Of a DNA stretch of 64,000 nt, positions 8,474-21,425 are shown piece after piece. Both the position numbers and the translations under genes were made by a program. How positions within the stretch are numbered: position 1 is the stretch's first letter; each line of letters starts with the position of its first letter. The notes beneath the pieces are model-generated. The model made no database searches. It was not told where the DNA came from and worked only from the letters and a program-made list of their open reading frames with translations. The stretch lies in NCBI RefSeq assembly GCF_003790525.1, contig NZ_CP033635.1, one strand, 5' to 3'. This DNA comes from Escherichia coli. GTDB taxonomy: Bacteria; Pseudomonadota; Gammaproteobacteria; Enterobacterales; Enterobacteriaceae.

Positions 8474-9211
8474 TCATGTACAGCGCTGTACCGGGCAATG
8501 GGTAATACCGGTCACAACCGGTAACCCCAGAGACAATGCAACTGTTTTTAACGCAATATACTGGCCGGATGTATCACCCCGGGCAGCCTGAAAACACCTT
8601 TCCACCCGGCATTGTCCGTCAGCACTTATCACCCGCCATGTCTGTTGCAATAAATCCACCCGTTGCGAACATTCTTCATCAACCGTGGCACTGACCCGTG
8701 GATGGCAAATGCTCGTCTGGCTGAGCAGCAACAGGCATCGCATTGTTGCTCCTCCATGTTGTTCCCGCAACCAGCGTAATACCACCGGTGGTGCTGGACT
8801 GGCCGTGTGATTACGTTCAGTAATACGCTCGTGCACCTGTCGGTAAAAGGAAGTACAGAATGCATGAATCTGTTGTCCGTTGATGTTTCCTTCTGCCGAA
8901 TGGAGTGTGAAGTGGACGGCCAGCAGACGCGGCCAGTGATCCACCGCCTGCTGAATAAAACGCCGGATTTCCACCGGCTCTGAAAGTACGGTTTCGGTTA
9001 TTTGCACGATTTGATCCCCTTGAATGTTGCTGAACCGGTGTCGGTACGCAGGAAAGCACGCCGAGACCGGTACGATGCCTGTTACAGCGAAGAACGAGGA
9101 ATGACAGACGGGGGCAGCAGGTCGCCAGCACCAGGGACAGGGCTGATTTCCACAATACCAACGCTGGTATTTTGCACATTGCCAGCGTACCGGCATTACA
9201 ACACGTTTCAT
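8474..9211 (-). CDS. YagK/YfjJ-like (inovirus Gp2-like) protein, third tandem copy; possibly degenerate
   Basis: Central region (RLLAVHFTLH...NGQQIHAFCTSFYRQV...) parallels the two upstream paralogs; an internal Met at 9211 would overlap the alpA-like stop (ATGA). The N-terminal region is Cys/Trp-rich and atypical, so a frameshifted pseudogene is possible. Confidence 0.35.
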   Translation of the reverse strand: MKRVVMPVRWQCAKYQRWYCGNQPCPWCWRPAAPVCHSSFFAVTGIVPVSACFPAYRHRFSNIQGDQIVQITETVLSEPVEIRRFIQQAVDHWPRLLAVHFTLHSAEGNINGQQIHAFCTSFYRQVHERITERNHTASPAPPVVLRWLREQHGGATMRCLLLLSQTSICHPRVSATVDEECSQRVDLLQQTWRVISADGQCRVERCFQAARGDTSGQYIALKTVALSLGLPVVTGITHCPVQRCT

Positions 9212-9444
9212 GCTGCTGCCCCTCGTGATGCCTCGATTCGTTGCTGCATCCACTGCTCCACTTCACTTTTGTACCAGCGGCTGCTGCGCCCCAGTTTGAT
9301 GGGTTTAGGGAAATGGCCTTCACTGATCAGCTTGTAAAACCATTTGTCGGTCATACCAGTGAAGCTGGTGATGTAGTTCATGTCGATCAGGGGATCGTCG
9401 GCACGCAGCAATACGCTGTCGTGACCTGTCATTGAGGTCAACAT
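9208..9444 (-). CDS. AlpA-family prophage regulatory protein
   Basis: Contains ...FTGMTDKWFYKLISEGHFPKPIKLGRSSRWYKSEVEQWMQQRIEASRG, the typical AlpA-like helix-turn-helix of integrative islands. The true start is probably the internal Met at 9381. Confidence 0.7.
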   Translation of the reverse strand: MLTSMTGHDSVLLRADDPLIDMNYITSFTGMTDKWFYKLISEGHFPKPIKLGRSSRWYKSEVEQWMQQRIEASRGAAA

Positions 9445-9512
9445 GGTCAGAATGTCCTCTGTGAGATTTATGAATGTTGGGCAAATGCGGGTGAATCTGC
9501 TGAGCTGAGCTT

Positions 9513-10115
9513 TCAGAGCTGGCCTGCTACGGGATACCAGGGATTACCGGCGAGGTAACGGGCTTCCGGATCGCGCACACCACGACGATCGCGGGCGAAA
9601 TCACTGAACGCCCATATCAGCTCTTTGAGTCTCTCTTCGCAGTCCGGTGAACAACTGTCCAGCACCACATCCCGGGTTATCTGTTTCTGGTACGGTGCCG
9701 CTTCACCCGGTGAGGCGAAGCCCAGCACGTTGCTCCAGGCATCCAGAATCAGCCGATCCAGTTCAGGGCCGTCGAAATACTCCTGCCTGACGCACAGCAC
9801 CACGTGGTATTCCGGCTTTTCAGGATGACGTGTCAGGAGCCAGCAGAGGTCACGTCCGGGGGTTGCATTCATCAGGTCACTGACGGTTTCAATAAAGGCC
9901 ATACCGAACCAGGTCCTGCGGCTGCTGAAGGTATTATCGGGTTCCCACGGCAGACGAAGCAGGATACGTCGTATCCGGGAGCCGGACTGCTCACGCAGCG
10001 CACGGTCAAGAACGCCAATAACTTTGTTCTGATACGAGGGCCAGAAGGGTGCCATGCTGTCGTCGAAATAAGAGAAAGTATTCACAGGATATGCTCCGTT
10101 ATGCGCAGCCCACAA
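9513..10115 (-). CDS. YagK/YfjJ-family (inovirus Gp2-like) protein
   Basis: 200-aa ORF paralogous to 10418..11149; the only in-frame start before an upstream stop is a TTG. Confidence 0.5.
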   Translation of the reverse strand: MWAAHNGAYPVNTFSYFDDSMAPFWPSYQNKVIGVLDRALREQSGSRIRRILLRLPWEPDNTFSSRRTWFGMAFIETVSDLMNATPGRDLCWLLTRHPEKPEYHVVLCVRQEYFDGPELDRLILDAWSNVLGFASPGEAAPYQKQITRDVVLDSCSPDCEERLKELIWAFSDFARDRRGVRDPEARYLAGNPWYPVAGQL

Positions 10116-10417
10116 CGCGTCCTGCCCGGGGATGGATGGGCTGACGGGTTACAGGCTGCGGATGAGGTTGATGGAACAGGTGAAGAACCGACGCTGAGCG
10201 GGAATATCAGGGAAGAACATTCAGGGTGAATGAACTCCGTTGACTTCGGTTCACATCATTAAGCAGGGCGGTAAGGTTTTACCGACAGATTGTTTCCGGG
10301 TGCGGAAGCAGATACCGCTGCTGACTTCATGACGGGTTATCAGAATACGGGATAAGGGCATTGGCTGACTCTCTTACCGTGGCATAAGTTCAGGTACCGG
10401 ATACCGTTTTACCGACC

Positions 10418-11149
10418 TCACCTGCCATCCAGCAAACGCCCCGGCCCACGGCTGCAACCATAATTACGCTGACCGGAACCATTATGCTGCTTCGTTTTAT
10501 TTTTCACGAGATAACTGGCTCTGTTCCTGGCTTTCTGCATCGCTGCCACATCACCACGCTTGATCCAGAGAACAGCGGCTTCACCCGGCTTTTTTTCTGA
10601 AGCCTTCCTGGTATCAGAACATCCACCCGACAAAGGCGTGTCATCGGAAGAAGGGCGAGCATCAGACGATGCTGGTTTACGAAAAGGCTTCCACCTGGAA
10701 AAATGGACCAGGCCATCGCCTTGCCAGGGCTCAAGATGCAGAGCGCTGCACCATGCCTCCTGGATCATCGCCGCCAGCGAAGACGGTTCGCTGAAATCCC
10801 CGAGCGAGCACCAGGTATCTTTGTTGAGCAGCAATATCACGTGATAATGTTTCCTGTTTTCTTCCTCTCCGAACTCCCGGCACCAGAAATAACGCAGGCT
10901 GGTTGCATGCACACGCTGACTGGCACGTCGCTTATGCTGCTGGTAAGCCTGGATTTTGGCTTTCAGGGATTCGAAAAAACGAGAAATCACCGCTGAATCC
11001 GGATCGGGATCCATGATGGTGACAGGCATATACTCAGGGAAACGTAAATCCACCCGGATTAACGAGACGGCACGGTGCTGCGACAGGGCACTGTCGAGAA
11101 GGCTGTCAAAACGGGATAACCAGTAAGCATTGTGTATTGGTTGATTCAT
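10418..11149 (-). CDS. YagK/YfjJ-family (inovirus Gp2-like) protein
   Basis: 243-aa ORF with N-terminal ...AVSLIRVDLRFPEYM... motif recalled from CP4-57 YfjJ / CP4-6 YagK. Confidence 0.55.
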   Translation of the reverse strand: MNQPIHNAYWLSRFDSLLDSALSQHRAVSLIRVDLRFPEYMPVTIMDPDPDSAVISRFFESLKAKIQAYQQHKRRASQRVHATSLRYFWCREFGEEENRKHYHVILLLNKDTWCSLGDFSEPSSLAAMIQEAWCSALHLEPWQGDGLVHFSRWKPFRKPASSDARPSSDDTPLSGGCSDTRKASEKKPGEAAVLWIKRGDVAAMQKARNRASYLVKNKTKQHNGSGQRNYGCSRGPGRLLDGR

Positions 11150-11209
11150 GATGAGAGATCTCCGTTGATTTGGATTGACTTCACATCATTAATCACCGCG
11201 GTAAAACTT

Positions 11210-12720
11210 TACGGCATCATGTCATTAAGCAATGCTACAACTCTCTGATTAAGAGTGATTGAAACGGAACAAACCATCCCGGAACGAAAAGATAATCCTG
11301 CACACAGCAGCAAAACACGCAACAACAGCATGAATGGATTTAAAAACGACATGGACGACGAGAAAAGCCTGAAGGGAAAAGGATCCACAGAACATTCGAA
11401 CAAAACACCAGAAACGCAACCAGAACGCTTCCTGGCAATGCAAATCAACAACAACACCAAAACCTACAGCTTAATCACACAACTCAATCACGAATGCGAA
11501 TGACACGTTTAAAACCTGTTTACAGATAACGTCGTAACAAGATCATCCCCATCAGAATCGATTTTCTTATCTTGAGTATGTTACTTTTCAACATACCTAA
11601 ACGATTAACCACCGATAACGTAAATCTCATCTGAATCAAAACACCAAAACCAATCATCACGTTTTCGACAGAAGAAAAACACCACATCATGACAAAAAGA
11701 ATGACCTTACACGGAAAAGAAAAACGTCAGGAATCGTTAATGCATACCTCAATCTGATTGTTATCAAAACATCCAGAAAGTCGTTTAACAGAATCGTCGT
11801 AAGCACATCGAAAAGAACGTCAGATCACCTCAGGAAAGTTCGGGTTGATTTAGCGTAAAGATACTTTTCTCAGCTTAACGTCGAAACACAAACCAAAAAC
11901 CACAAACAACCAAAGCTCAGGAAAGGTTAAACGTCACATCAGTAAAATCGAATAGCAGATTGATTGCTTAAACAGGAAGGATTGTTTTACAGCAGCATTA
12001 AACTGATTTAGTTAACGTAAAATCAGAACTGACAGGTTTACTAACTTGGATGTGTATCAGTTCAAAAATGTGTACAGCAATGCGTAATGAAACACATTTA
12101 AAGGAGATTAATGGGAAAAGTGTGTAAATGCGTAAACATGCACTAATGAATCACTGAAGGAATACATACAAAACGACTTAATGAAAACATAAAAGGACCT
12201 AATGGAAAAGGTGTATATAATACCATATCCGACATTCTCAACATCTTAAGACATCCATGCAGACTGAATGTTGGTTTCAGTTTTTCACGGTAAGCATGAA
12301 TCTTTTCTGTTCAAAAGCAGAGCAGATTTACTCTGGAATTATTTTTCTTACTCCGTATTCTGTACAGCAAAAACTTGTGCTAACTTTACAGCAAACCATC
12401 ATAATCAGCGTCTGTAGTCCCATCGCTTTACCCCATGAAAGTGAATCCATATGATGCGAGAGAGATAAGTCATCGTATCCGGTAAACACTGCTAACCATA
12501 ACATAAGATCATTCAGTCAGTTTTATCTCTGAACTGACGATTATGGCATGCTCATTTATATGGCTCACAGAGGAGTGTTATTATCTGTAAGCTTTAATCA
12601 TCAAATCACATGACCATACCAAACTGGCGCTATATCAGCTCATTTGACACCCCTTCCCTTTAGATTTCTTTATGTGTTTTTTGTCGATAATTAAAATGTA
12701 ATATGAATTTAATATTTTTA
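11210..12720 (+). other. ~1.5 kb non-coding, strand-asymmetric A-rich tract
   Basis: No ORF of 60 aa or more between 11503 and 12257 in any frame; hand counts on sampled 60-nt blocks give roughly 38-45% A versus 12-23% T on the + strand. Confidence 0.6.
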
Positions 12721-12722
12721 CA

Positions 12723-13946
12723 TCATAAACACCATTTAAAACCATTATCCTGAACATCATACAACAATATATTTTTACTAAAGCATGAATTGTATATTTC
12801 TATTAATTCAGGAAAATTATCAGGATTCACCTTTAAATTCACCTGAATGTTACGCCTAATTTCACCCAGCAGTTTTTCATGCGTGAATTTTATTATTTCT
12901 TTATCATAATCTATAAATTCACACATGTTTTTTATGAATTCAAACCCTTTTCCTGTATACAGTTTGATGAATGCCACAAGAGCAAACATTTCAAGATGCA
13001 GCCATAATGCCACGTGAGTTTTTCGCAAAGTATAAAAAATTGAATTCACCTCTTTTTTACTTATTGCTCTTTTGTACTGTGAGTGTGCCAGATTCAGTAG
13101 TGGCAATTCTCTCTCGATAAATGAAAGTGAAAAAGGCGGGTAAATTGATGTCGGAAATATTTTAGGTCTTATGATATTTTCTATTTCCACCATAAATCTA
13201 TCCATAGAAAGAAAATCATTTTCTTTTTTTATTCTGGTATAGAGACCGCCTTTATTTCTTACTGCGACTTTTTTTCGTGCTACCCCCCCCAACACTTCCT
13301 CTAATTGTTTATTTATCTTCGTATCATTAAATACAACCATTCTTCTTATCATCCTGGGAAGGATGATAATATCAGAGCTTGAATCACTTGAACGGTAATT
13401 ATTATTGATCCATGCAACTTCAAGTTGAAGTATCGGAACATTAAATTCTCTGGGGTTAATAACTCTCTGATATTGTTTTTTGTATGCGTTTTTATTAAGA
13501 TATTCTCTGCTGTAGAGAAACTTATAGCAATATAATCTGACAATATCCTTTATGTAAGATTTAAATGAGTCACCTGTAACAGATATATTTTTTCTGCTCA
13601 GTAACTCCTGTGTATTGAGCCATTCCCGTGACCGGAGTACTCCCTTATGAAGACTTTTTCTTACTTGCATTGAACTGCGCAATTGATGTAATATTTTTGC
13701 GTCCTCAACAATTCTCTTTCCCGTTTGATTTCTTGCAGCATCTATTACTCTGTCAAATATCTCCCGGTCCAGACTTTTGTCATATTTACTGATTATACGA
13801 CAAATATTCCTGACCCGACGGTTCTCTTTATTTCGTTTCCATAACTGATAATGATCATCACATAACCTCAGGGCATTTGCCTCATCAAATTCTGAAACAG
13901 GATTGCTGCATTTTTTATTCCGACAGATACCTTTGTTTTTAGCCAT
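12723..13946 (-). CDS. hypothetical protein, 407 aa, very low GC, N-terminal Cys/His cluster
   Basis: Long uninterrupted ORF in a region of roughly 30% GC (hand count on sampled blocks); K/N/I-rich; N-terminus GICRNKKCSNP...LCDDHY suggests a zinc-ribbon-like motif. No family recognised. Confidence 0.6.
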   Translation of the reverse strand: MAKNKGICRNKKCSNPVSEFDEANALRLCDDHYQLWKRNKENRRVRNICRIISKYDKSLDREIFDRVIDAARNQTGKRIVEDAKILHQLRSSMQVRKSLHKGVLRSREWLNTQELLSRKNISVTGDSFKSYIKDIVRLYCYKFLYSREYLNKNAYKKQYQRVINPREFNVPILQLEVAWINNNYRSSDSSSDIIILPRMIRRMVVFNDTKINKQLEEVLGGVARKKVAVRNKGGLYTRIKKENDFLSMDRFMVEIENIIRPKIFPTSIYPPFSLSFIERELPLLNLAHSQYKRAISKKEVNSIFYTLRKTHVALWLHLEMFALVAFIKLYTGKGFEFIKNMCEFIDYDKEIIKFTHEKLLGEIRRNIQVNLKVNPDNFPELIEIYNSCFSKNILLYDVQDNGFKWCL

Positions 13947-14000
13947 ACTCTTCTTCCCGTCAATGGAAAATTTTTCACGTCCATATTACCTGACTGAGAG

Positions 14001-14021
14001 ACCGGATTAATGTGATCCGGT
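14001..14021 (+). promoter_or_regulatory. inverted repeat in the divergent intergenic region
   Basis: ACCGGAT-taatgtg-ATCCGGT perfect 7-bp arms, between the divergent 407-aa ORF and the GTPase gene. Confidence 0.3.
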
Positions 14022-14046
14022 TCAGTGAAATCAACAGGATACCGGT

Positions 14047-14931
14047 ATGTCATTCAGCCATTCTTCCCTTTCCGCACACGTAAAATCACATCTGACCTTT
14101 CTTCCTGAAGAAATACGCCAGAAAATCCTTGAATATCTTCACAGCGTCATTCAGTACGAACCCGTGATTGGCATTATGGGTAAATCCGGTGCCGGAAAAA
14201 GCAGCCTGTGCAATGCCATTTTTCAGTCCCGTGTCTGCGCCACGCATCCACTGAACGGCTGCACCCGTCAGGCTCATCGTCTTACCTTTCAGCCTGGTGA
14301 ACGCAGAATGACGCTCGTCGATCTGCCCGGCACTGGCGAAACACCACAGCATGATCAGGAATACCGGGCACTTTACCGTCAGTTACTGCCCGAACTGGAT
14401 CTGATTATCTGGATCCTGCGTGCTGATGAACGTGCGTATGCTGCCGACATCGCCATGCATCAGTTTTTACTGAATGAAGGTGCCGATCCCTCGCGTTTTC
14501 TGTTTGTTCTCAGCCATGCTGATCGCATCCACCCGGCTGAAGAATGGAACAGCCAGAGCAACACGCCATCCCGTCAGCAGGAACTCTCACTGGCAACAGT
14601 AACAGCCCGGGTGGCAACCCTGTTCCCTTCATCATTTCCGGTACTCCCCATAGCTGCCCCTGCAGGCTGGAATCTTCCGGCATTTGTGTCACTGATGATC
14701 CACGCCCTGCCACCACAGGCAACCAGCACGGTTTATTCGCATATCCGGAATGAAAAGCGCACTGCGCAGGATCAGCAACACGCACAGCAGGCTTTTGGTG
14801 ACGCCATCGGCCAGAGCTTTGACGCGGCCATTGCCCGGTTCAGCTTTCCGGCCTGGATGCTGCAGCTTCTGCGTAAAGCCCGTGATCGCATTATCCGCCT
14901 GCTGGTCACACTGTGGGATCGCCTGTTCTGA
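14047..14931 (+). CDS. YeeP/YfjP/YkfA-family GTPase (50S ribosome-binding GTPase domain)
   Basis: 294-aa ORF with P-loop GIMGKSGAGKSS and overall resemblance to K-12 prophage GTPases YfjP/YeeP. Confidence 0.85.
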   Translation: MSFSHSSLSAHVKSHLTFLPEEIRQKILEYLHSVIQYEPVIGIMGKSGAGKSSLCNAIFQSRVCATHPLNGCTRQAHRLTFQPGERRMTLVDLPGTGETPQHDQEYRALYRQLLPELDLIIWILRADERAYAADIAMHQFLLNEGADPSRFLFVLSHADRIHPAEEWNSQSNTPSRQQELSLATVTARVATLFPSSFPVLPIAAPAGWNLPAFVSLMIHALPPQATSTVYSHIRNEKRTAQDQQHAQQAFGDAIGQSFDAAIARFSFPAWMLQLLRKARDRIIRLLVTLWDRLF

Positions 14932-15116
14932 ATTTCCCCGCTTTTTGACCGGCACAGACGATGACCAGGGAACGCATTTCCGGCGGCTTTACCACAATGC
15001 TGAAGGGCTTTTGGTAAACCTCATTCATTTCATCCATCAGGCAGCGTCTTCTCCGGGAGATGCGGCTTTTTCATTGATTACGTCAGTCAGTCTTAACCAC
15101 TGATAAGGAGCAAAGT

Positions 15117-15935
15117 ATGCGATTAGCCAGTCGTTTTGGTTATGCGAACCAGATACGCCGTGACCGTCCGCTGACACATGAAGAGCTGATGCACCATGTG
15201 CCCGGGATTTTCGGGGAGGATAAGCACACCTCCCGGAGCCGGAACTATACATACATCCCCACCATCACCGTGCTGGAAAGCCTGCAACGGGAAGGCTTTC
15301 AGCCGTTCTTTGCCTGCCAGACCCGCGTGCGTGACCCGGGACGCCGGGGATACACAAAGCACATGCTGCGTCTGCGCCGTGACGGGGAGATAAACGGACA
15401 GCATGTCCCTGAAATCATCCTGCTCAACTCCCATGACGGCACCTCCAGCTACCAGATGCTGCCGGGTTACTTCCGGTTCGTGTGTCAGAACGGATGTGTC
15501 TGTGGTCAGTCTCTCGGAGAGGTGCGTGTCCCGCACCGGGGAGACGTGGTGGACAGGGTCATTGAAGGGGCTTACGAGGTGGTGGGCGTGTTTGACCGGA
15601 TAGAGGAAAAGCGTGATGCCATGCAGTCACTGATTTTACCACCACCGGCTCGTCAGGCGCTGGCACAGGCCGCCCTGACTTACCGTTATGGTGACGAACA
15701 TCAGCCCGTCACCACCGCCGACATTCTGACACCACGACGCCGGGAGGATTACGGTCAGGACCTGTGGAGTGCTTATCAGACCATCCAGGAGAATATGCTG
15801 AAAGGCGGGATTTCCGGTCGCAGTGCAAAAGGAAAACGTATCCATACCCGGGCCATTCACAGCATTGATACCGATATAAAACTCAACCGCGCATTGTGGG
15901 TGATGGCAGAAACGCTGCTGGAGAGCATGCGCTGA
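15117..15935 (+). CDS. DUF932 protein (YfjQ-like)
   Basis: 272-aa ORF closely resembling CP4-57 YfjQ (MRLASRFG...YTYIPTI...FFACQ.RVRD...). Confidence 0.85.
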   Translation: MRLASRFGYANQIRRDRPLTHEELMHHVPGIFGEDKHTSRSRNYTYIPTITVLESLQREGFQPFFACQTRVRDPGRRGYTKHMLRLRRDGEINGQHVPEIILLNSHDGTSSYQMLPGYFRFVCQNGCVCGQSLGEVRVPHRGDVVDRVIEGAYEVVGVFDRIEEKRDAMQSLILPPPARQALAQAALTYRYGDEHQPVTTADILTPRRREDYGQDLWSAYQTIQENMLKGGISGRSAKGKRIHTRAIHSIDTDIKLNRALWVMAETLLESMR

Positions 15936-16016
15936 TGCCGTTTCCCTGAGTGAGGGAATCATTCAGCTTTCGTTCCTGAAAAACACACATTTATTTGTTA
16001 TTTAAGGAGTTATCTC

Positions 16017-16457
16017 ATGAAAACCGTTTCTCAGAATACCCCCACAATTTATTCAGCTACAACACCAGAGAATAATCCGCCTCAGTTGGTTGCCAGCCTC
16101 GTCCCTGATGAACAGCGCATCAGCTTCTGGCCGCAGCATTTTGGCCTCATTCCACAGTGGGTGACCCTGGAGCCCCGTGTCTTCGGCTGGATGGACCGTC
16201 TGTGCGAAGACTACTGCGGTGGTATCTGGAATCTGTACACCCTGAACAACGGCGGCGCATTTATGGCCCCCGAACCGGATGATGATGATGACGAAACATG
16301 GGTACTGTTCAATGCCATGAACGGTAACCGCGCTGAAATGAGCCCGGAAGCCGCCGGCATTGCTGCCTGTCTGATGACGTACAGTCATCATGCCTGTCGT
16401 ACGGAGTGTTATGCCATGACGGTTCATTATTACCGTCTGCGGGATTACGCCCTGTAG
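16017..16457 (+). CDS. antirestriction protein (YfjX/KlcA/ArdB-like)
   Basis: 146-aa ORF with the conserved FWPQHFGLIPQW...GWMDRLCEDYCGGIW motif block. Confidence 0.8.
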   Translation: MKTVSQNTPTIYSATTPENNPPQLVASLVPDEQRISFWPQHFGLIPQWVTLEPRVFGWMDRLCEDYCGGIWNLYTLNNGGAFMAPEPDDDDDETWVLFNAMNGNRAEMSPEAAGIAACLMTYSHHACRTECYAMTVHYYRLRDYAL

Positions 16458-16511
16458 CATCCGGAATGCAGCGCCATTATGCGCATCATTGACTGAAAGG
16501 GGGCCGGAACA

Positions 16512-16988
16512 ATGCAACAGATTTCCTTTCTGCCCGGAGAAATGACAACCAGAGAGCGCAGCCTCATTCAGCGGGCCCTGAAAGCCCTGGACCGCCATCT
16601 TCATGAACCCGGCGTGGCCTTCACCTCCACCCGTGCGGCACGGGAATGGCTGATTCTGAACATGGCGGGACTGGAGCGGGAAGAGTTCCGGGTGCTGTAC
16701 CTGAACAACCAGAATCAGCTGATTGCCGGTGAAACCCTCTTCACCGGCACCATCAACCGCACGGAAGTCCATCCCCGGGAGGTGGTTAAACGCGCCCTGT
16801 ACCACAATGCCGCTGCCGTGGTGCTGGCACACAATCATCCGTCCGGTGAAGTCACACCCGGTAAGGCAGACCGGCTTATCACTGAACGTCTGGTACAGGC
16901 ACTGGCCCTGGTGGATATCCGGGTGCCGGACCATCTGATAATCGGTGGCAGCCGGGTGTTCTCCTTTGCCGAACACGGTCTGCTTTAA
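16512..16988 (+). CDS. RadC-like JAB-domain protein (YeeS/YfjY/YkfG-like)
   Basis: 158-aa ORF with JAMM motif HNHPSG...; typical island position after the antirestriction gene. Confidence 0.85.
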   Translation: MQQISFLPGEMTTRERSLIQRALKALDRHLHEPGVAFTSTRAAREWLILNMAGLEREEFRVLYLNNQNQLIAGETLFTGTINRTEVHPREVVKRALYHNAAAVVLAHNHPSGEVTPGKADRLITERLVQALALVDIRVPDHLIIGGSRVFSFAEHGLL

Positions 16989-17077
16989 TCCGTCACCGTC
17001 ACAACCACCTTCATATTGTCACTTCAGTTTCTCTTTCTCAGCTGTTTCTCACTTTCACATTCAGGAGGACTGTTCTC

Positions 17078-17299
17078 ATGAAAATCGTCACCCGTGGTGA
17101 AGCCATGCGCGTTCACCGTCAGTATCCGTCATCCCGTCTTTTTCCGTTCTGCACCGGTAAGTACCGCTGGCACGGCGGCACTGAGGCGTATACCGGTCGT
17201 GAAGTGCAGGATATCCCCGGCGTACTGGCCGTGTTTGCCGAACGCCGCAAGGACAGTTTTGGCCCGTATGTCCGGCTGATGAGCGTCACCCTGAACTGA
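17078..17299 (+). CDS. DUF987 protein (YeeT/YkfH-like)
   Basis: 73-aa ORF MKIVTRGEAMRVHRQ...; size and position match DUF987 genes of CP4-type islands. Confidence 0.7.
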   Translation: MKIVTRGEAMRVHRQYPSSRLFPFCTGKYRWHGGTEAYTGREVQDIPGVLAVFAERRKDSFGPYVRLMSVTLN

Positions 17300-17303
17300 G
17301 TCA

Positions 17304-17960
17304 GTGGAGATGCTGATGAGCAGCATTATCACCACCACCGTGTATACGCTGAATGAACTTTCCGCCACAGCACGGGAAAAAGCCCGCGGCTGGTACCGTC
17401 AGCATCATGCTGACAGCCGCTGGTATGAAAACGTGTATGAGGACTTCAGGGCGGTCTGTGAGATTGTCGGGATTGTCCTCCGCCAGCGTGTTATCCGGCT
17501 CAGCAGCGGCAGGTTTATGGAAGAGCCGTGCATCTGGTTCAGCGGATTCTGCAGCCAGGGGGACGGAGCCTGTTTTGAAGGGCGCTGGCACTGGCAGCCG
17601 GCAACAGCCAGGCGAGTCCGGGAATATGCCCCGCAGGACCGTGAGCTTCATCGTATCACGGATGCCCTGCAGGCGGTGCAGAAGCATAACTTCCGGCAGT
17701 TACAGGCTGAAATCCGTCACCGGGGACGCTACTGCCATCCGTACAGCATGGATATCACCGTCACCCGGGACAGCCCGACCGGACAGGCAATGACAGCCGG
17801 CGCGGAAACCGTTGTCTGTGACGCCCTGCGGGACCTGGCCTTCTGGTTATACAGTCAACTGGAAAACGAGTACGACTGGCTGACCTCAGATGACGCCGTG
17901 GATGAGGCGCTTCTCATCAACGGATACACCTTCACCGAAGCCGGTCTGCGCGCCGGCTGA
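17304..17960 (+). CDS. hypothetical protein, 218 aa, unrecognised family
   Basis: ORF starts 5 nt after the DUF987 stop and lies between DUF987 and the CbeA-like antitoxin; Cys/Trp/His-rich (CIWFSGFCSQGDGACFEGRWHW). Confidence 0.5.
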   Translation: MEMLMSSIITTTVYTLNELSATAREKARGWYRQHHADSRWYENVYEDFRAVCEIVGIVLRQRVIRLSSGRFMEEPCIWFSGFCSQGDGACFEGRWHWQPATARRVREYAPQDRELHRITDALQAVQKHNFRQLQAEIRHRGRYCHPYSMDITVTRDSPTGQAMTAGAETVVCDALRDLAFWLYSQLENEYDWLTSDDAVDEALLINGYTFTEAGLRAG

Positions 17961-18010
17961 CCCGTCATTGTTAAAACCATTCTTAACCGATTATCAGTGA
18001 GGACTTTATC

Positions 18011-18388
18011 ATGTCAGACACACTCACCGGGACAACGCATCCCGACGACAACAGCGACCGCCCCTGGTGGGGGCTGCCCTGCACCGTGACGCCCTGTTTC
18101 GGTGCCCGTCTGGTGCAGGAGGGTAACCGCCTGCATTACCTTGCAGACCGCGCCGGCATCAGAGGCCGGTTCAGCGACGCAGATGCGTACCACCCGGACC
18201 AGGCCTTTCCGCTGCTGATGAAACAGCTGGAACTCATGCTCACCAGTGGTGAACTCAGTCCCCGCCATCAGCATACCGTCACACTGTATGCGAAAGGGCT
18301 GACCTGCGAAGCCGACACCCTCGGCAGTTGTGGTTACGTGTATATCGCCATTTATCCGACACCGGCAACACCCGGAACCACCGCATAA
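18011..18388 (+). CDS. cbeA: CbeA/YeeU-family type IV antitoxin
   Basis: [52 protein letters not shown]... is near-identical to YeeU/CbeA as recalled. Confidence 0.85.
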
Positions 18389-18434
18389 CCCCGGACAGCA
18401 CTTCTTTATCACCACCTGTTACAGAGTACTTAAG

Positions 18435-18809
18435 ATGAAAACATTCCCCGACACACATGTACGGGCAACATCGCGCTGCCCGTCTCCGGTTGAAATCTGG
18501 CAGACACTGCTCACCCGGTTGCTGGACCAGCACTACGGCCTCACGCTGAATGACACACCGTTCGCCGATGAACGTGTGATTGAACAGCATATTGAGGCAG
18601 GTATTTCACTGTGTGATGCGGTGAACTTTCTCGTGGAAAAATACGCACTGGTGCGTACCGACCAGCCGGGATTCAGTGCCTGCACCCGCTCTCAGTTAAT
18701 CAACAGCATTGATATCCTCCGGGCCCGCCGGGCAACCGGCCTGATGACCCGCAGCCACTACCGAATGGTGAGCAACATCACCCTGGGTAAACACTGTGAG
18801 GTGAAATGA
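18435..18809 (+). CDS. cbtA: CbtA/YeeV-family type IV toxin
   Basis: ...[65 protein letters not shown]... matches CbtA/YeeV. Start set at the ATG at 18435 rather than the longer ORF-track start. Confidence 0.85.
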
Positions 18810-19297
18810 TGAAACTGTCCCTGACGCTGGAAGCAGACAGCGTTAACGTCCGGGCACTGAACATGGGGCGCATTGTCGCTGACGTCGATGGTGTTAATCT
18901 CGCTGAACTGATTAACGTGGTCTGCGATAACGGCTGTTCCCTTCGTGTTGTTGATGAATCTGACCGGACCTCAGCAGACTGCATGCCACCATTTACTGCC
19001 CTTACCGGCATACGCTGCAGTACCGCACATATCACGGAACAGGACAATGCCTGGCTGTACTCGCTGTCGCATCAGACGAATGACAACGGCGAATCAGAAT
19101 GGATTCATTTTACAGGCAGCGGATATCTGTTACGTACTGATGCGTGGTCGTACCCGGCTCTGCGGCTTAAACGCCTGGGGCTGTCAAAAACCTTCCGCCG
19201 TCTGGTTGTCACACTTATCCGGCGTTATGGCGTCAGTCTCATTCATCTGGATGCCGGCGCTGAATGTCTGCCGGGTTTACCCACTTTCGACTGGTAA
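18806..19297 (+). CDS. YeeW-like protein (DUF5983)
   Basis: 163-aa ORF overlapping the cbtA stop, in the position occupied by yeeW in CP4-44. Confidence 0.65.
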
Positions 19298-19316
19298 CCG
19301 GGACAAAAGACACCGT

Positions 19317-19514
19317 ATGAAATCATTAACCACAGAAACGGCACCGGATATTCTGATTGCGTGGCTGCAGGACAATATCGACTGCGGCTCCGGCATTATC
19401 TTCGACAACGATGAGGATAAAACGGATTCGGCAGCACTGCTGCCCTGTATCGAACAGGCCAGAGCGGATATCCGCACCCTGCGCCACCTGCAGCTTCAGC
19501 ACCAGAACCGGTGA
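19317..19514 (+). CDS. DUF957 small protein
   Basis: 65-aa ORF MKSLTTETAPDILIAWLQDNIDCGSGIIFDNDEDKTD..., recalled as the DUF957 family of island ends. Confidence 0.55.
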   Translation: MKSLTTETAPDILIAWLQDNIDCGSGIIFDNDEDKTDSAALLPCIEQARADIRTLRHLQLQHQNR

Positions 19515-19609
19515 GTCTCACTCATCATCTCACTCACCACGATTCATTCCCCTGACGCCAGTCCGAATACGGCTGGCGTTTTCATTTATAAACCACAAGG
19601 AAAAATGTA

Positions 19610-20458
19610 ATGTCTGATATCACAATCCCTTATCCGGAAGCGGTCAACGGACATACGGACGTTATCTGCTCCACAGATATCCGGCACGTTGTGACGGTAC
19701 GGAATGAAGCACTGCAACAAACCGAAAGGGTTATCCGGCAACTGGCAGAAATCTCAGCAATGACAGAAAGCATAGGCGGTAAAACGGCGCGGGACTGGGC
19801 CGTGAAACAGGATTTTCGCTGTGGCTGCTGGCTGATGGAAAAACCGGAAACCGCAATGAAAGCCATCACCCGGAACCTTGACCGTGAAATCTGGCGTGAC
19901 CTGATGCAACGCTCCGGGATGCTGAGTCTGATGGATGCACAGGCGCGTGATGAATGGTACCGTTCACAGGAGGACGATAATTTCCCGGAAATCAGCGAAG
20001 CGAATATCCTGAGCACGTCTGAACAACTGCACCGTAACAGGGATGAAATGGCTGAACGGGGCGTCATCAACCTCTTCAGGGGACTGAGCCGGACGCAAAA
20101 CAGCGGGTCACCCTGTAAATTCGGCAGCAAGATTATCCTCAACAACCTGGTGAAATGGGACTGGTGGGGATTTGGTCTGAACCATGGCCCGCAGGCCGGG
20201 CGGCTTGCCGACCTGGAAAGAATGTTGTATCTGTTCAGTGGTAAACCCATACCCGATTACAGGGACAATATCCTCATTCGTCTGGATGAGCACATCCGGT
20301 CCGTTCAGGGTGAAGCGTGTTATGAAGATGAGATGTTCAGCATCAGATACTTCAGGAAAGGCTCTGCGCATATCACGTTTAAACACCCGGAACTGGTGGA
20401 GAAGCTGAATGCTGTTCTGGCGAAACATTATTCGGTAAAGTTCCATTCTTCTGTATAA
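19610..20458 (+). CDS. hypothetical protein, 282 aa (possibly DUF4942-like)
   Basis: Long ORF with a good SD (AAGGAAAA); family assignment from memory is uncertain. Last gene before the core genome. Confidence 0.5.
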   Translation: MSDITIPYPEAVNGHTDVICSTDIRHVVTVRNEALQQTERVIRQLAEISAMTESIGGKTARDWAVKQDFRCGCWLMEKPETAMKAITRNLDREIWRDLMQRSGMLSLMDAQARDEWYRSQEDDNFPEISEANILSTSEQLHRNRDEMAERGVINLFRGLSRTQNSGSPCKFGSKIILNNLVKWDWWGFGLNHGPQAGRLADLERMLYLFSGKPIPDYRDNILIRLDEHIRSVQGEACYEDEMFSIRYFRKGSAHITFKHPELVEKLNAVLAKHYSVKFHSSV

Positions 20459-20661
20459 ACTTACAGATCACGGGTATTGTGTCTCGTCCTGAACAGGGCC
20501 GACAGGTATACTGCATTCGCTGAGCCATTACAGATAATGCCTCAACTGAGTTCAATCTACCTCCATGTACAACAACAATACGATGGGGGCTACATTGGGG
20601 GCTATACTTTCAAGTAAAACTGATATAACCAAGATTAAACAATAAGATAGAGAATTTTCAC

Positions 20662-20716
20662 CATTCCCCTCTGGGGAGAGGATTAGGGTGAGGGGCGCAA
20701 ACCCGCTCCGGGGCCA
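20662..20716 (+). repeat. GC-rich palindromic repeat-like element upstream of glnP
   Basis: CCATTCCCCTCTGGGGAGAGGATTAGGGTGAGGGGCGCAAACCCGCTCCGGGGCC contains nested inverted repeats resembling E. coli intergenic palindromic units. Confidence 0.3.
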
Positions 20717-20765
20717 TTAATTACCCTGAATTTGATTATTTACACCACGGTAACAGGAACAACAT

Positions 20766-21425
20766 ATGCAGTTTGACTGGAGTGCCATCTGGCCAGCCAT
20801 TCCGCTTCTGATTGAAGGTGCCAAAATGACCCTGTGGATCTCGGTCCTCGGTCTGGCTGGCGGCCTGGTGATCGGATTGCTGGCAGGTTTTGCACGCACC
20901 TTCGGTGGTTGGATAGCCAACCACGTCGCGCTGGTCTTTATTGAAGTGATCCGCGGCACACCTATCGTCGTCCAGGTGATGTTTATCTATTTCGCCCTGC
21001 CGATGGCGTTTAACGACTTACGCATCGACCCGTTTACTGCGGCGGTGGTCACCATCATGATCAACTCTGGCGCGTACATTGCGGAAATCACGCGTGGTGC
21101 GGTGCTGTCTATTCACAAAGGTTTTCGTGAAGCAGGACTGGCGCTCGGTCTTTCACGTTGGGAAACCATTCGCTACGTCATTTTACCGCTGGCACTGCGT
21201 CGTATGCTGCCGCCGCTGGGTAACCAGTGGATCATCAGCATTAAAGACACCTCGCTGTTTATTGTTATCGGTGTGGCGGAACTGACCCGTCAGGGGCAAG
21301 AAATTATTGCCGGTAACTTCCGCGCCCTTGAGATCTGGAGCGCCGTGGCGGTGTTCTATCTGATTATTACCCTGGTGCTGAGCTTTATTCTGCGTCGTCT
21401 GGAAAGAAGGATGAAAATCCTGTGA
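20766..21425 (+). CDS. glnP: glutamine ABC transporter permease GlnP
   Basis: 219-aa ORF matching K-12 GlnP ([15 protein letters not shown]...). Confidence 0.95.

Follow-up and report, generated by a model that had tools for sequence, protein, structure and literature searches.

The locus examined here raises the question of whether three consecutive genes near the end of an Escherichia coli genomic island form an intact CbeA/CbtA toxin-antitoxin module, and how far the genes around them belong with it. We analysed it within a stretch of 64,000 nucleotides from contig NZ_CP033635.1, which we call the window. The genes very probably make up a type IV toxin-antitoxin module, an intact CbeA/CbtA (YeeU/YeeV) allele of E. 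coli, situated in the conserved distal block of a CP4-like integrative island (Table 1). The module is already known, annotated, common and ordinary, and since RefSeq has identical, annotated entries for its proteins and the family is a textbook one, it carries little weight as a discovery. What novelty remains lies in its companions, i.e. YeeW, the DUF957 ORF and the 214-aa ORF, which have been lost in K-12.

Table 1. Genes and other features of the island block, in window coordinates; the last row gives related stand-alone genes in the coordinates of their own loci.
Feature	Position	Strand	Length	Annotation or evidence
DUF932 gene	15117-15935	+		Pfam
Antirestriction gene	16017-16457	+		Pfam
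RadC/JAB gene	16512-16988	+		Pfam
yeeT-like DUF987 gene	17078-17299	+	73 aa	PF06174, 125.8 bits; 90 % identity to K-12 YeeT
214-aa ORF	17316-17960	+	214 aa	RefSeq 'hypothetical', 'DUF8835', 'antitoxin of toxin-antitoxin stability system'
cbeA/yeeU-family antitoxin gene	18011-18388	+	125 aa	PF06154
cbtA/yeeV-family toxin gene	18435-18809	+	124 aa	PF06755
yeeW-like gene, full-length DUF5983 (N-domain and C-domain)	18806-19297	+	163 aa	PF25638 and PF19419
DUF957 ORF, last gene before the terminator	19317-19514	+	65 aa	RefSeq name
Terminator-like hairpin and T-run	19554-19590 (hairpin 19554-19580)	+		3′ of the DUF957 ORF
DUF4942 gene, last of the island	19610-20458	+		PF13708, 199.9 bits
Stand-alone DUF5983 C-domain genes	L016 4001-4294; L019 4001-4336; L020 4001-4312			F-like plasmid leading regions, ICE-like elements

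The six-frame ORF list and the sequence itself place the three genes one after another on the + strand, and the window contains only one copy of the module. CbeA matched PF06154 (CbeA_antitoxin) with 181.2 bits against a cut-off of 27 (E 6e-54, profile positions 1-100 of 101) and CbtA matched PF06755 (CbtA_toxin) with 205.6 bits against a cut-off of 25 (E 1.7e-61, profile positions 1-112 of 112), so that both scores are 7-8 times the gathering scores. BLASTP against K-12 YeeU, YeeV, YeeW and their paralogs (NC_000913.3) gave 89.8 % identity over 118 aa to K-12 CbeA and 85.5 % over 124 aa to K-12 CbtA. Identities to the paralogs were around 67 % for CbeA (YfjZ/YafW) and 61-65 % for CbtA (YpjF/YkfI). 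CbeA also matched the solved structures of the YeeU family, 2INW (E 8.6e-79) and 2H28, which is YeeU (E 4.7e-74), as well as the YfjZ structures 2JN7 and 2EA9 (E about 3e-41). Sequence searches returned no solved structural relative of CbtA or YeeW, and NCBIfam holds no model for CbeA, CbtA or YeeW. The preliminary description had assigned the pair to the CbeA/CbtA families and proposed this gene order, and the Pfam scores far above the cut-offs, the high BLASTP identities, the structures and the RefSeq labels of the closest strain all agree with it. The start of cbtA is the ATG at 18435, the same as in K-12 and RefSeq; a longer ORF beginning with GTG at 18330 is unsupported as the gene start and overlaps the antitoxin gene.

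The overlapping YeeW-like ORF named in the preliminary description is present too, and could be refined to the complete two-domain form of DUF5983. Pfam recognised DUF5983_N at residues 5-60 (98.9 bits) and the DUF5983 C-domain at residues 70-163 (80.9 bits). K-12 YeeW, a remnant of 64 aa, could be aligned by BLASTP over 51 aa only, with 67 % identity. Longer YeeW-related proteins in the databases (175-215 aa) were discarded as read-through or assembly artefacts with unrelated tails.

The genes are arranged compactly. From the 214-aa ORF through the DUF957 ORF, gaps on the same strand measure at most 50 nt, with 46 nt between the end of cbeA at 18388 and the start of cbtA. Most of the same-strand genes are preceded by a Shine-Dalgarno sequence, which for cbeA is GAGGA, 8 nt 5′ of the gene. 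The ATG of yeeW overlaps the TGA of cbtA by 4 nt (ATGA), and as this overlap is kept in all eight loci compared (the window and seven others), it indicates that translation of yeeW is probably coupled to that of cbtA. Behind the DUF957 ORF, a consensus scan found a terminator-like hairpin with a 10-bp stem including six G-C pairs, followed by TTCATTTATA. The hairpin folds as RNA with -18.1 kcal/mol (z -2.2) and the stretch is homologous in K-12. The genes of the module are probably co-transcribed, also with those upstream. The scan for promoter consensus on the + strand gave no convincing candidate for cbeA, since the -10 hexamer of the only match, at 17983-18012, overlaps the start codon of cbeA, and this match is unlikely to serve the gene. 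An Rfam scan of 13000-21000 with E-values up to 1 found no RNA family. On the opposite strand, an ORF of 133 aa runs antisense to cbeA (18014-18415, -), which probably arises just from the high GC content of the coding sequence.

Further upstream, the DUF932, antirestriction and RadC genes are separated by gaps of 54-89 nt, have a Shine-Dalgarno sequence before each of them and follow the same order as in the K-12 CP4 islands and at other loci. The same-strand block is headed by a gene for a YeeP-like GTPase (14047-14931, +), residues 183-286 of which gave a weak PADLOC match to LeoBC (E 1.2e-6). PADLOC returned no defence-system match for any protein of the module.

We estimated selection with the Nei-Gojobori method against six to seven diverged E. 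coli loci. The dN/dS values were 0.09-0.29 for cbeA, 0.11-0.22 for cbtA, 0.10-0.38 for yeeW and 0.08-0.40 for the DUF957 ORF, where the near-identical pair with locus L005, which shows no amino-acid difference, was set aside. Judged by these ratios (0.1-0.4), all four genes are under purifying selection, and their frames are full length relative to their profiles. yeeW and the DUF957 ORF are thus real conserved genes, and the segment consisting of these two is covered to at least 80 % in 3835 complete E. coli genomes. The DUF957 ORF carries this RefSeq label at every homologous locus examined, and found no match in the current copies of Pfam, NCBIfam, PHROGs and PADLOC. It may correspond to AntiFam ANF00264, a family beside DUF5983 that is possibly wrongly classed as spurious and is discussed in a 2026 preprint.

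We also noticed an open frame of 189 aa (18945-19514, +) lying +1 relative to yeeW, which overlaps the 3′ half of yeeW and enters the DUF957 ORF. It is open in four of the eight loci, namely the window, its two closest loci L001 (strain CM2) and L005, as well as L009, and closed in the other four. Together with a recent report (bioRxiv 10.64898/2026.06.09.728211), this frame suggested a YeeW-DUF957 fusion made by programmed +1 frameshifting. We rejected the idea for these loci because some loci have an offset of 1 and others of 2 and, in four of the eight, stop codons lie 9-45 nt before the ATG of the DUF957 ORF.

The relation to K-12 became clear from direct alignment. Three stretches of the window, 17078-17340, 17976-18957 and 19432-19604, have homologous sequence in K-12 CP4-44. 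Two are missing there: 17341-17975, with the body of the 214-aa ORF (a remnant of 16 codons, MSRIIATT..., is kept), and 18958-19431, with the C-domain of YeeW and the beginning of the DUF957 ORF. Judged from this alignment, the arrangement is complete in the window, and CP4-44 of K-12 derives from such an arrangement by two deletions; the 64-aa yeeW of K-12 is a deletion remnant of a two-domain DUF5983 gene. What the preliminary description had called an extra upstream ORF, our 214-aa ORF, is indeed there, but it is extra only relative to K-12, where it was deleted. Lying between yeeT and cbeA, it encodes a highly conserved mobile-element protein with 2170 homologs, which reach about 60 % identity in Salmonella and Alphaproteobacteria. 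It matches phrog_5162 (E 3e-34); the copy of Pfam that we searched has no family for it, and structural comparison gave nothing informative.

In the remaining parts, the CP4-44 pair has the same families, order and strand as the window, the same upstream genes (yeeT, at 90 % identity, and RadC) and the conserved F65 in the toxin. The window differs from it in having Cys15 and another N-terminus at residues 4-15 of CbtA, a CbeA tail three residues longer, like that of 2INW, and a cbeA-cbtA spacer of 46 nt instead of 88 nt, in addition to the intact 214-aa ORF, full-length YeeW and intact DUF957 ORF, all hit by the K-12 deletions. The other two K-12 pairs, YafW/YkfI in CP4-6 and YfjZ/YpjF in CP4-57, are paralogous type IV pairs in the same antirestriction-RadC-DUF987-antitoxin-toxin block, and their toxins carry Cys15. 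However, they are only 61-67 % identical to the window proteins, their toxins are shorter (109-113 aa), their antitoxins lack the N-terminal extension of 14 residues and no DUF5983 gene follows 3′ in either island. Besides CP4-44, CP4-6 and CP4-57, the gene order also matches five other E. coli loci. The module had been proposed as a marker of the island type, and the island is accordingly CP4-like and integrative, with the module as a landmark for its distal end. The K-12 copy used in all functional work is the doubly deleted form of an arrangement that many other E. coli genomes carry, so experiments in K-12 would not have revealed any role that YeeW, the DUF957 ORF or the 214-aa ORF may have.

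Regarding the mechanism, K-12 CbtA has two targets (PMC5624674). Its direct contact with the FtsZ H6/H7 loop blocks cell division, and it blocks elongation by way of MreB, at the flat double-filament face. CbeA, as summarised in the same paper, acts in the type IV manner: it does not attach to the toxin but binds to FtsZ and MreB, whose bundling it stabilises. The three pairs of K-12 cross-neutralise, and their transcription is weak and not autoregulated (PMC5371832). By homology, we are confident that the module in the window works as CbtA/CbeA of K-12 does. Its CbtA is predicted to be toxic and would bind the FtsZ H6/H7 loop and the flat face of MreB, and the block of both division and elongation would lead to lemon-shaped cells. 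CbeA would neutralise it without contacting the toxin, by binding and bundling the FtsZ and MreB filaments.

Two residues were examined in this respect. The FtsZ and MreB activities of K-12 CbtA are separable, as F65S abolishes FtsZ binding, also in YkfI and YpjF, and R15C in K-12 CbtA abolishes MreB binding (PMC5624674). F65 is conserved in the window, in the motif AVNFLVEKY, and position 15 is Cys. We considered that this Cys could mean a loss of MreB targeting and set this aside as unlikely, as Cys15 is the common allele: together with an N-terminus of the PDTHVR..SRCPSP type it occurs in seven of the eight E. coli alleles compared, with Arg15 of K-12 as the outlier. Moreover, YkfI and YpjF carry Cys15 and still block elongation, and the reverse change C15R had no effect in either (PMC5624674). 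Cys15 is therefore weak counter-evidence to a K-12-like action.

The companion genes suggest that the pair might be part of a larger conserved unit with YeeW, the DUF957 ORF and the 214-aa protein. These would either modulate the pair or, joined by the genes for antirestriction, RadC and DUF4942, correspond on the island to the establishment and anti-defence set found in plasmid leading regions; taken together, we see this as an unlikely extension of the type IV pair. The former version, a system of four to five genes in which YeeW, the DUF957 ORF and/or the 214-aa ORF act with CbtA/CbeA as modulators, a second antitoxin or a sensor, appears doubtful to a similar degree. It fits with the coupling of yeeW to cbtA in all eight loci, with the purifying selection on yeeW and the DUF957 ORF, and with the published adjacency of CbtA and DUF5983 across E. 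coli sequence types (PMC10790755; bioRxiv 10.64898/2026.06.09.728211). It is also in line with fusions of the 214-aa ORF to CbeA (342-343 aa), which are found in many E. coli and form many protein clusters, and with a Salmonella contig where the homolog of the 214-aa ORF lies directly between CbeA and CbtA. However, the CP4-44 pair of K-12 works as a toxin-antitoxin system in published experiments (PMC5624674, PMC5371832) without the 214-aa ORF, the C-domain of YeeW and the beginning of the DUF957 ORF, and CP4-6 and CP4-57 have no yeeW at all. Three upstream genes left the toxicity of YkfI unchanged (PMC5371832), and the DUF5983 C-domain and the 214-aa ORF both occur without CbtA in plasmid and ICE contexts.

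These contexts bring in the second version. Stand-alone DUF5983 C-domain proteins, encoded in leading regions of plasmids and ICEs and in phages, share the C-domain of the window YeeW with 30-43 % identity, and H75, D80, G106, S127 and W163 are invariant in the alignment. Unlike YeeW of the window, they lack the N-domain and an adjacent CbtA, and their gene neighbours are PsiA/PsiB, N6_Mtase, antirestriction and SLT/TraM, or ArdC/DUF1281/TraI_2. In F-like plasmids the gene sits between PsiB-PsiA-N6_Mtase and SLT-TraM. The ICE-like order is ArdC, DUF1281, DUF5983, UvrD and TraI_2, with an overlap of 4 nt between the DUF5983 gene and the one preceding it.

The likeness hints that the distal block of the island resembles a leading-region gene set. 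If the stretch from DUF932 to DUF4942 were the island counterpart of a conjugative leading region, CbtA/CbeA would serve the establishment or retention of the element and not host physiology, which we rate as somewhat less probable still than the multi-gene system. Beyond the plasmid, ICE and phage relatives of DUF5983, this is suggested by the antirestriction, RadC and DUF4942 genes in the block, the last of these encoding a protein with weak similarity to a phage DNA-methyltransferase family, and by an alphaproteobacterial element in which homologs of the 214-aa ORF adjoin RadC, ParB_N and a large helicase. All of this is guilt by association, however, and against it stand the lack of PADLOC matches among the block proteins and of transfer genes near the module in the window. 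The reading as a K-12-like type IV pair is thus the one we keep.

The module is widespread. Searched by megablast, the segment 17000-19600 matches 4952 of the 5426 complete E. coli genomes, the median being three places per genome. One place covers at least 80 % of this segment in 1638 genomes, and thus includes the 214-aa ORF; the full arrangement is present in about a third of the matching E. coli records (1640 of 4959). The best match is E. coli strain CM2 (NZ_CP158308.1, 1808584-1811184), with 99.9 % nucleotide identity over 2601 nt. Its CbeA, CbtA, YeeW, 214-aa ORF and DUF4942 proteins are 100 % identical to those of the window, and RefSeq labels them as 'YeeU family antitoxin', 'CbtA family toxin', DUF5983, a 214-aa hypothetical protein and DUF4942.

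The near-perfect match in another strain, together with frames that are all full length against the Pfam profiles and dN/dS values well below 1 for four genes, makes it very improbable that this is a mere relic of evolution, with genes that stayed intact by chance but have ceased to act as a toxin-antitoxin system in this host, even though CP4-like islands decay, K-12 has two deletions in the same module, the antitoxin of the O157 strain TX 265-1 is truncated and the K-12 paralogs are transcribed at a low level (PMC5371832).

As to the site of the island, core-genome homology begins near 20665, about 100 nt 5′ of glnP, which marks the junction between island and core. The island end (about 20459-20766) contains neither glnH nor a tRNA gene, and no tRNA gene was found anywhere in the window. 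In CM2 the module lies at a different chromosomal site, beside yjgR/idn and near a tRNA-Leu gene, whereas the island of the window abuts glnP. The region 8476-20696 is about 98.5 % identical to CM2 overall and 99.9 % over 17000-19600, and the strains with the same glnP junction reach only about 96 % identity in the toxin-antitoxin region. We regard the island as mosaic or mobile. The glnP junction is common to only 4 of the 5426 complete E. coli genomes, so it represents a rare insertion site for a CP4-like island.
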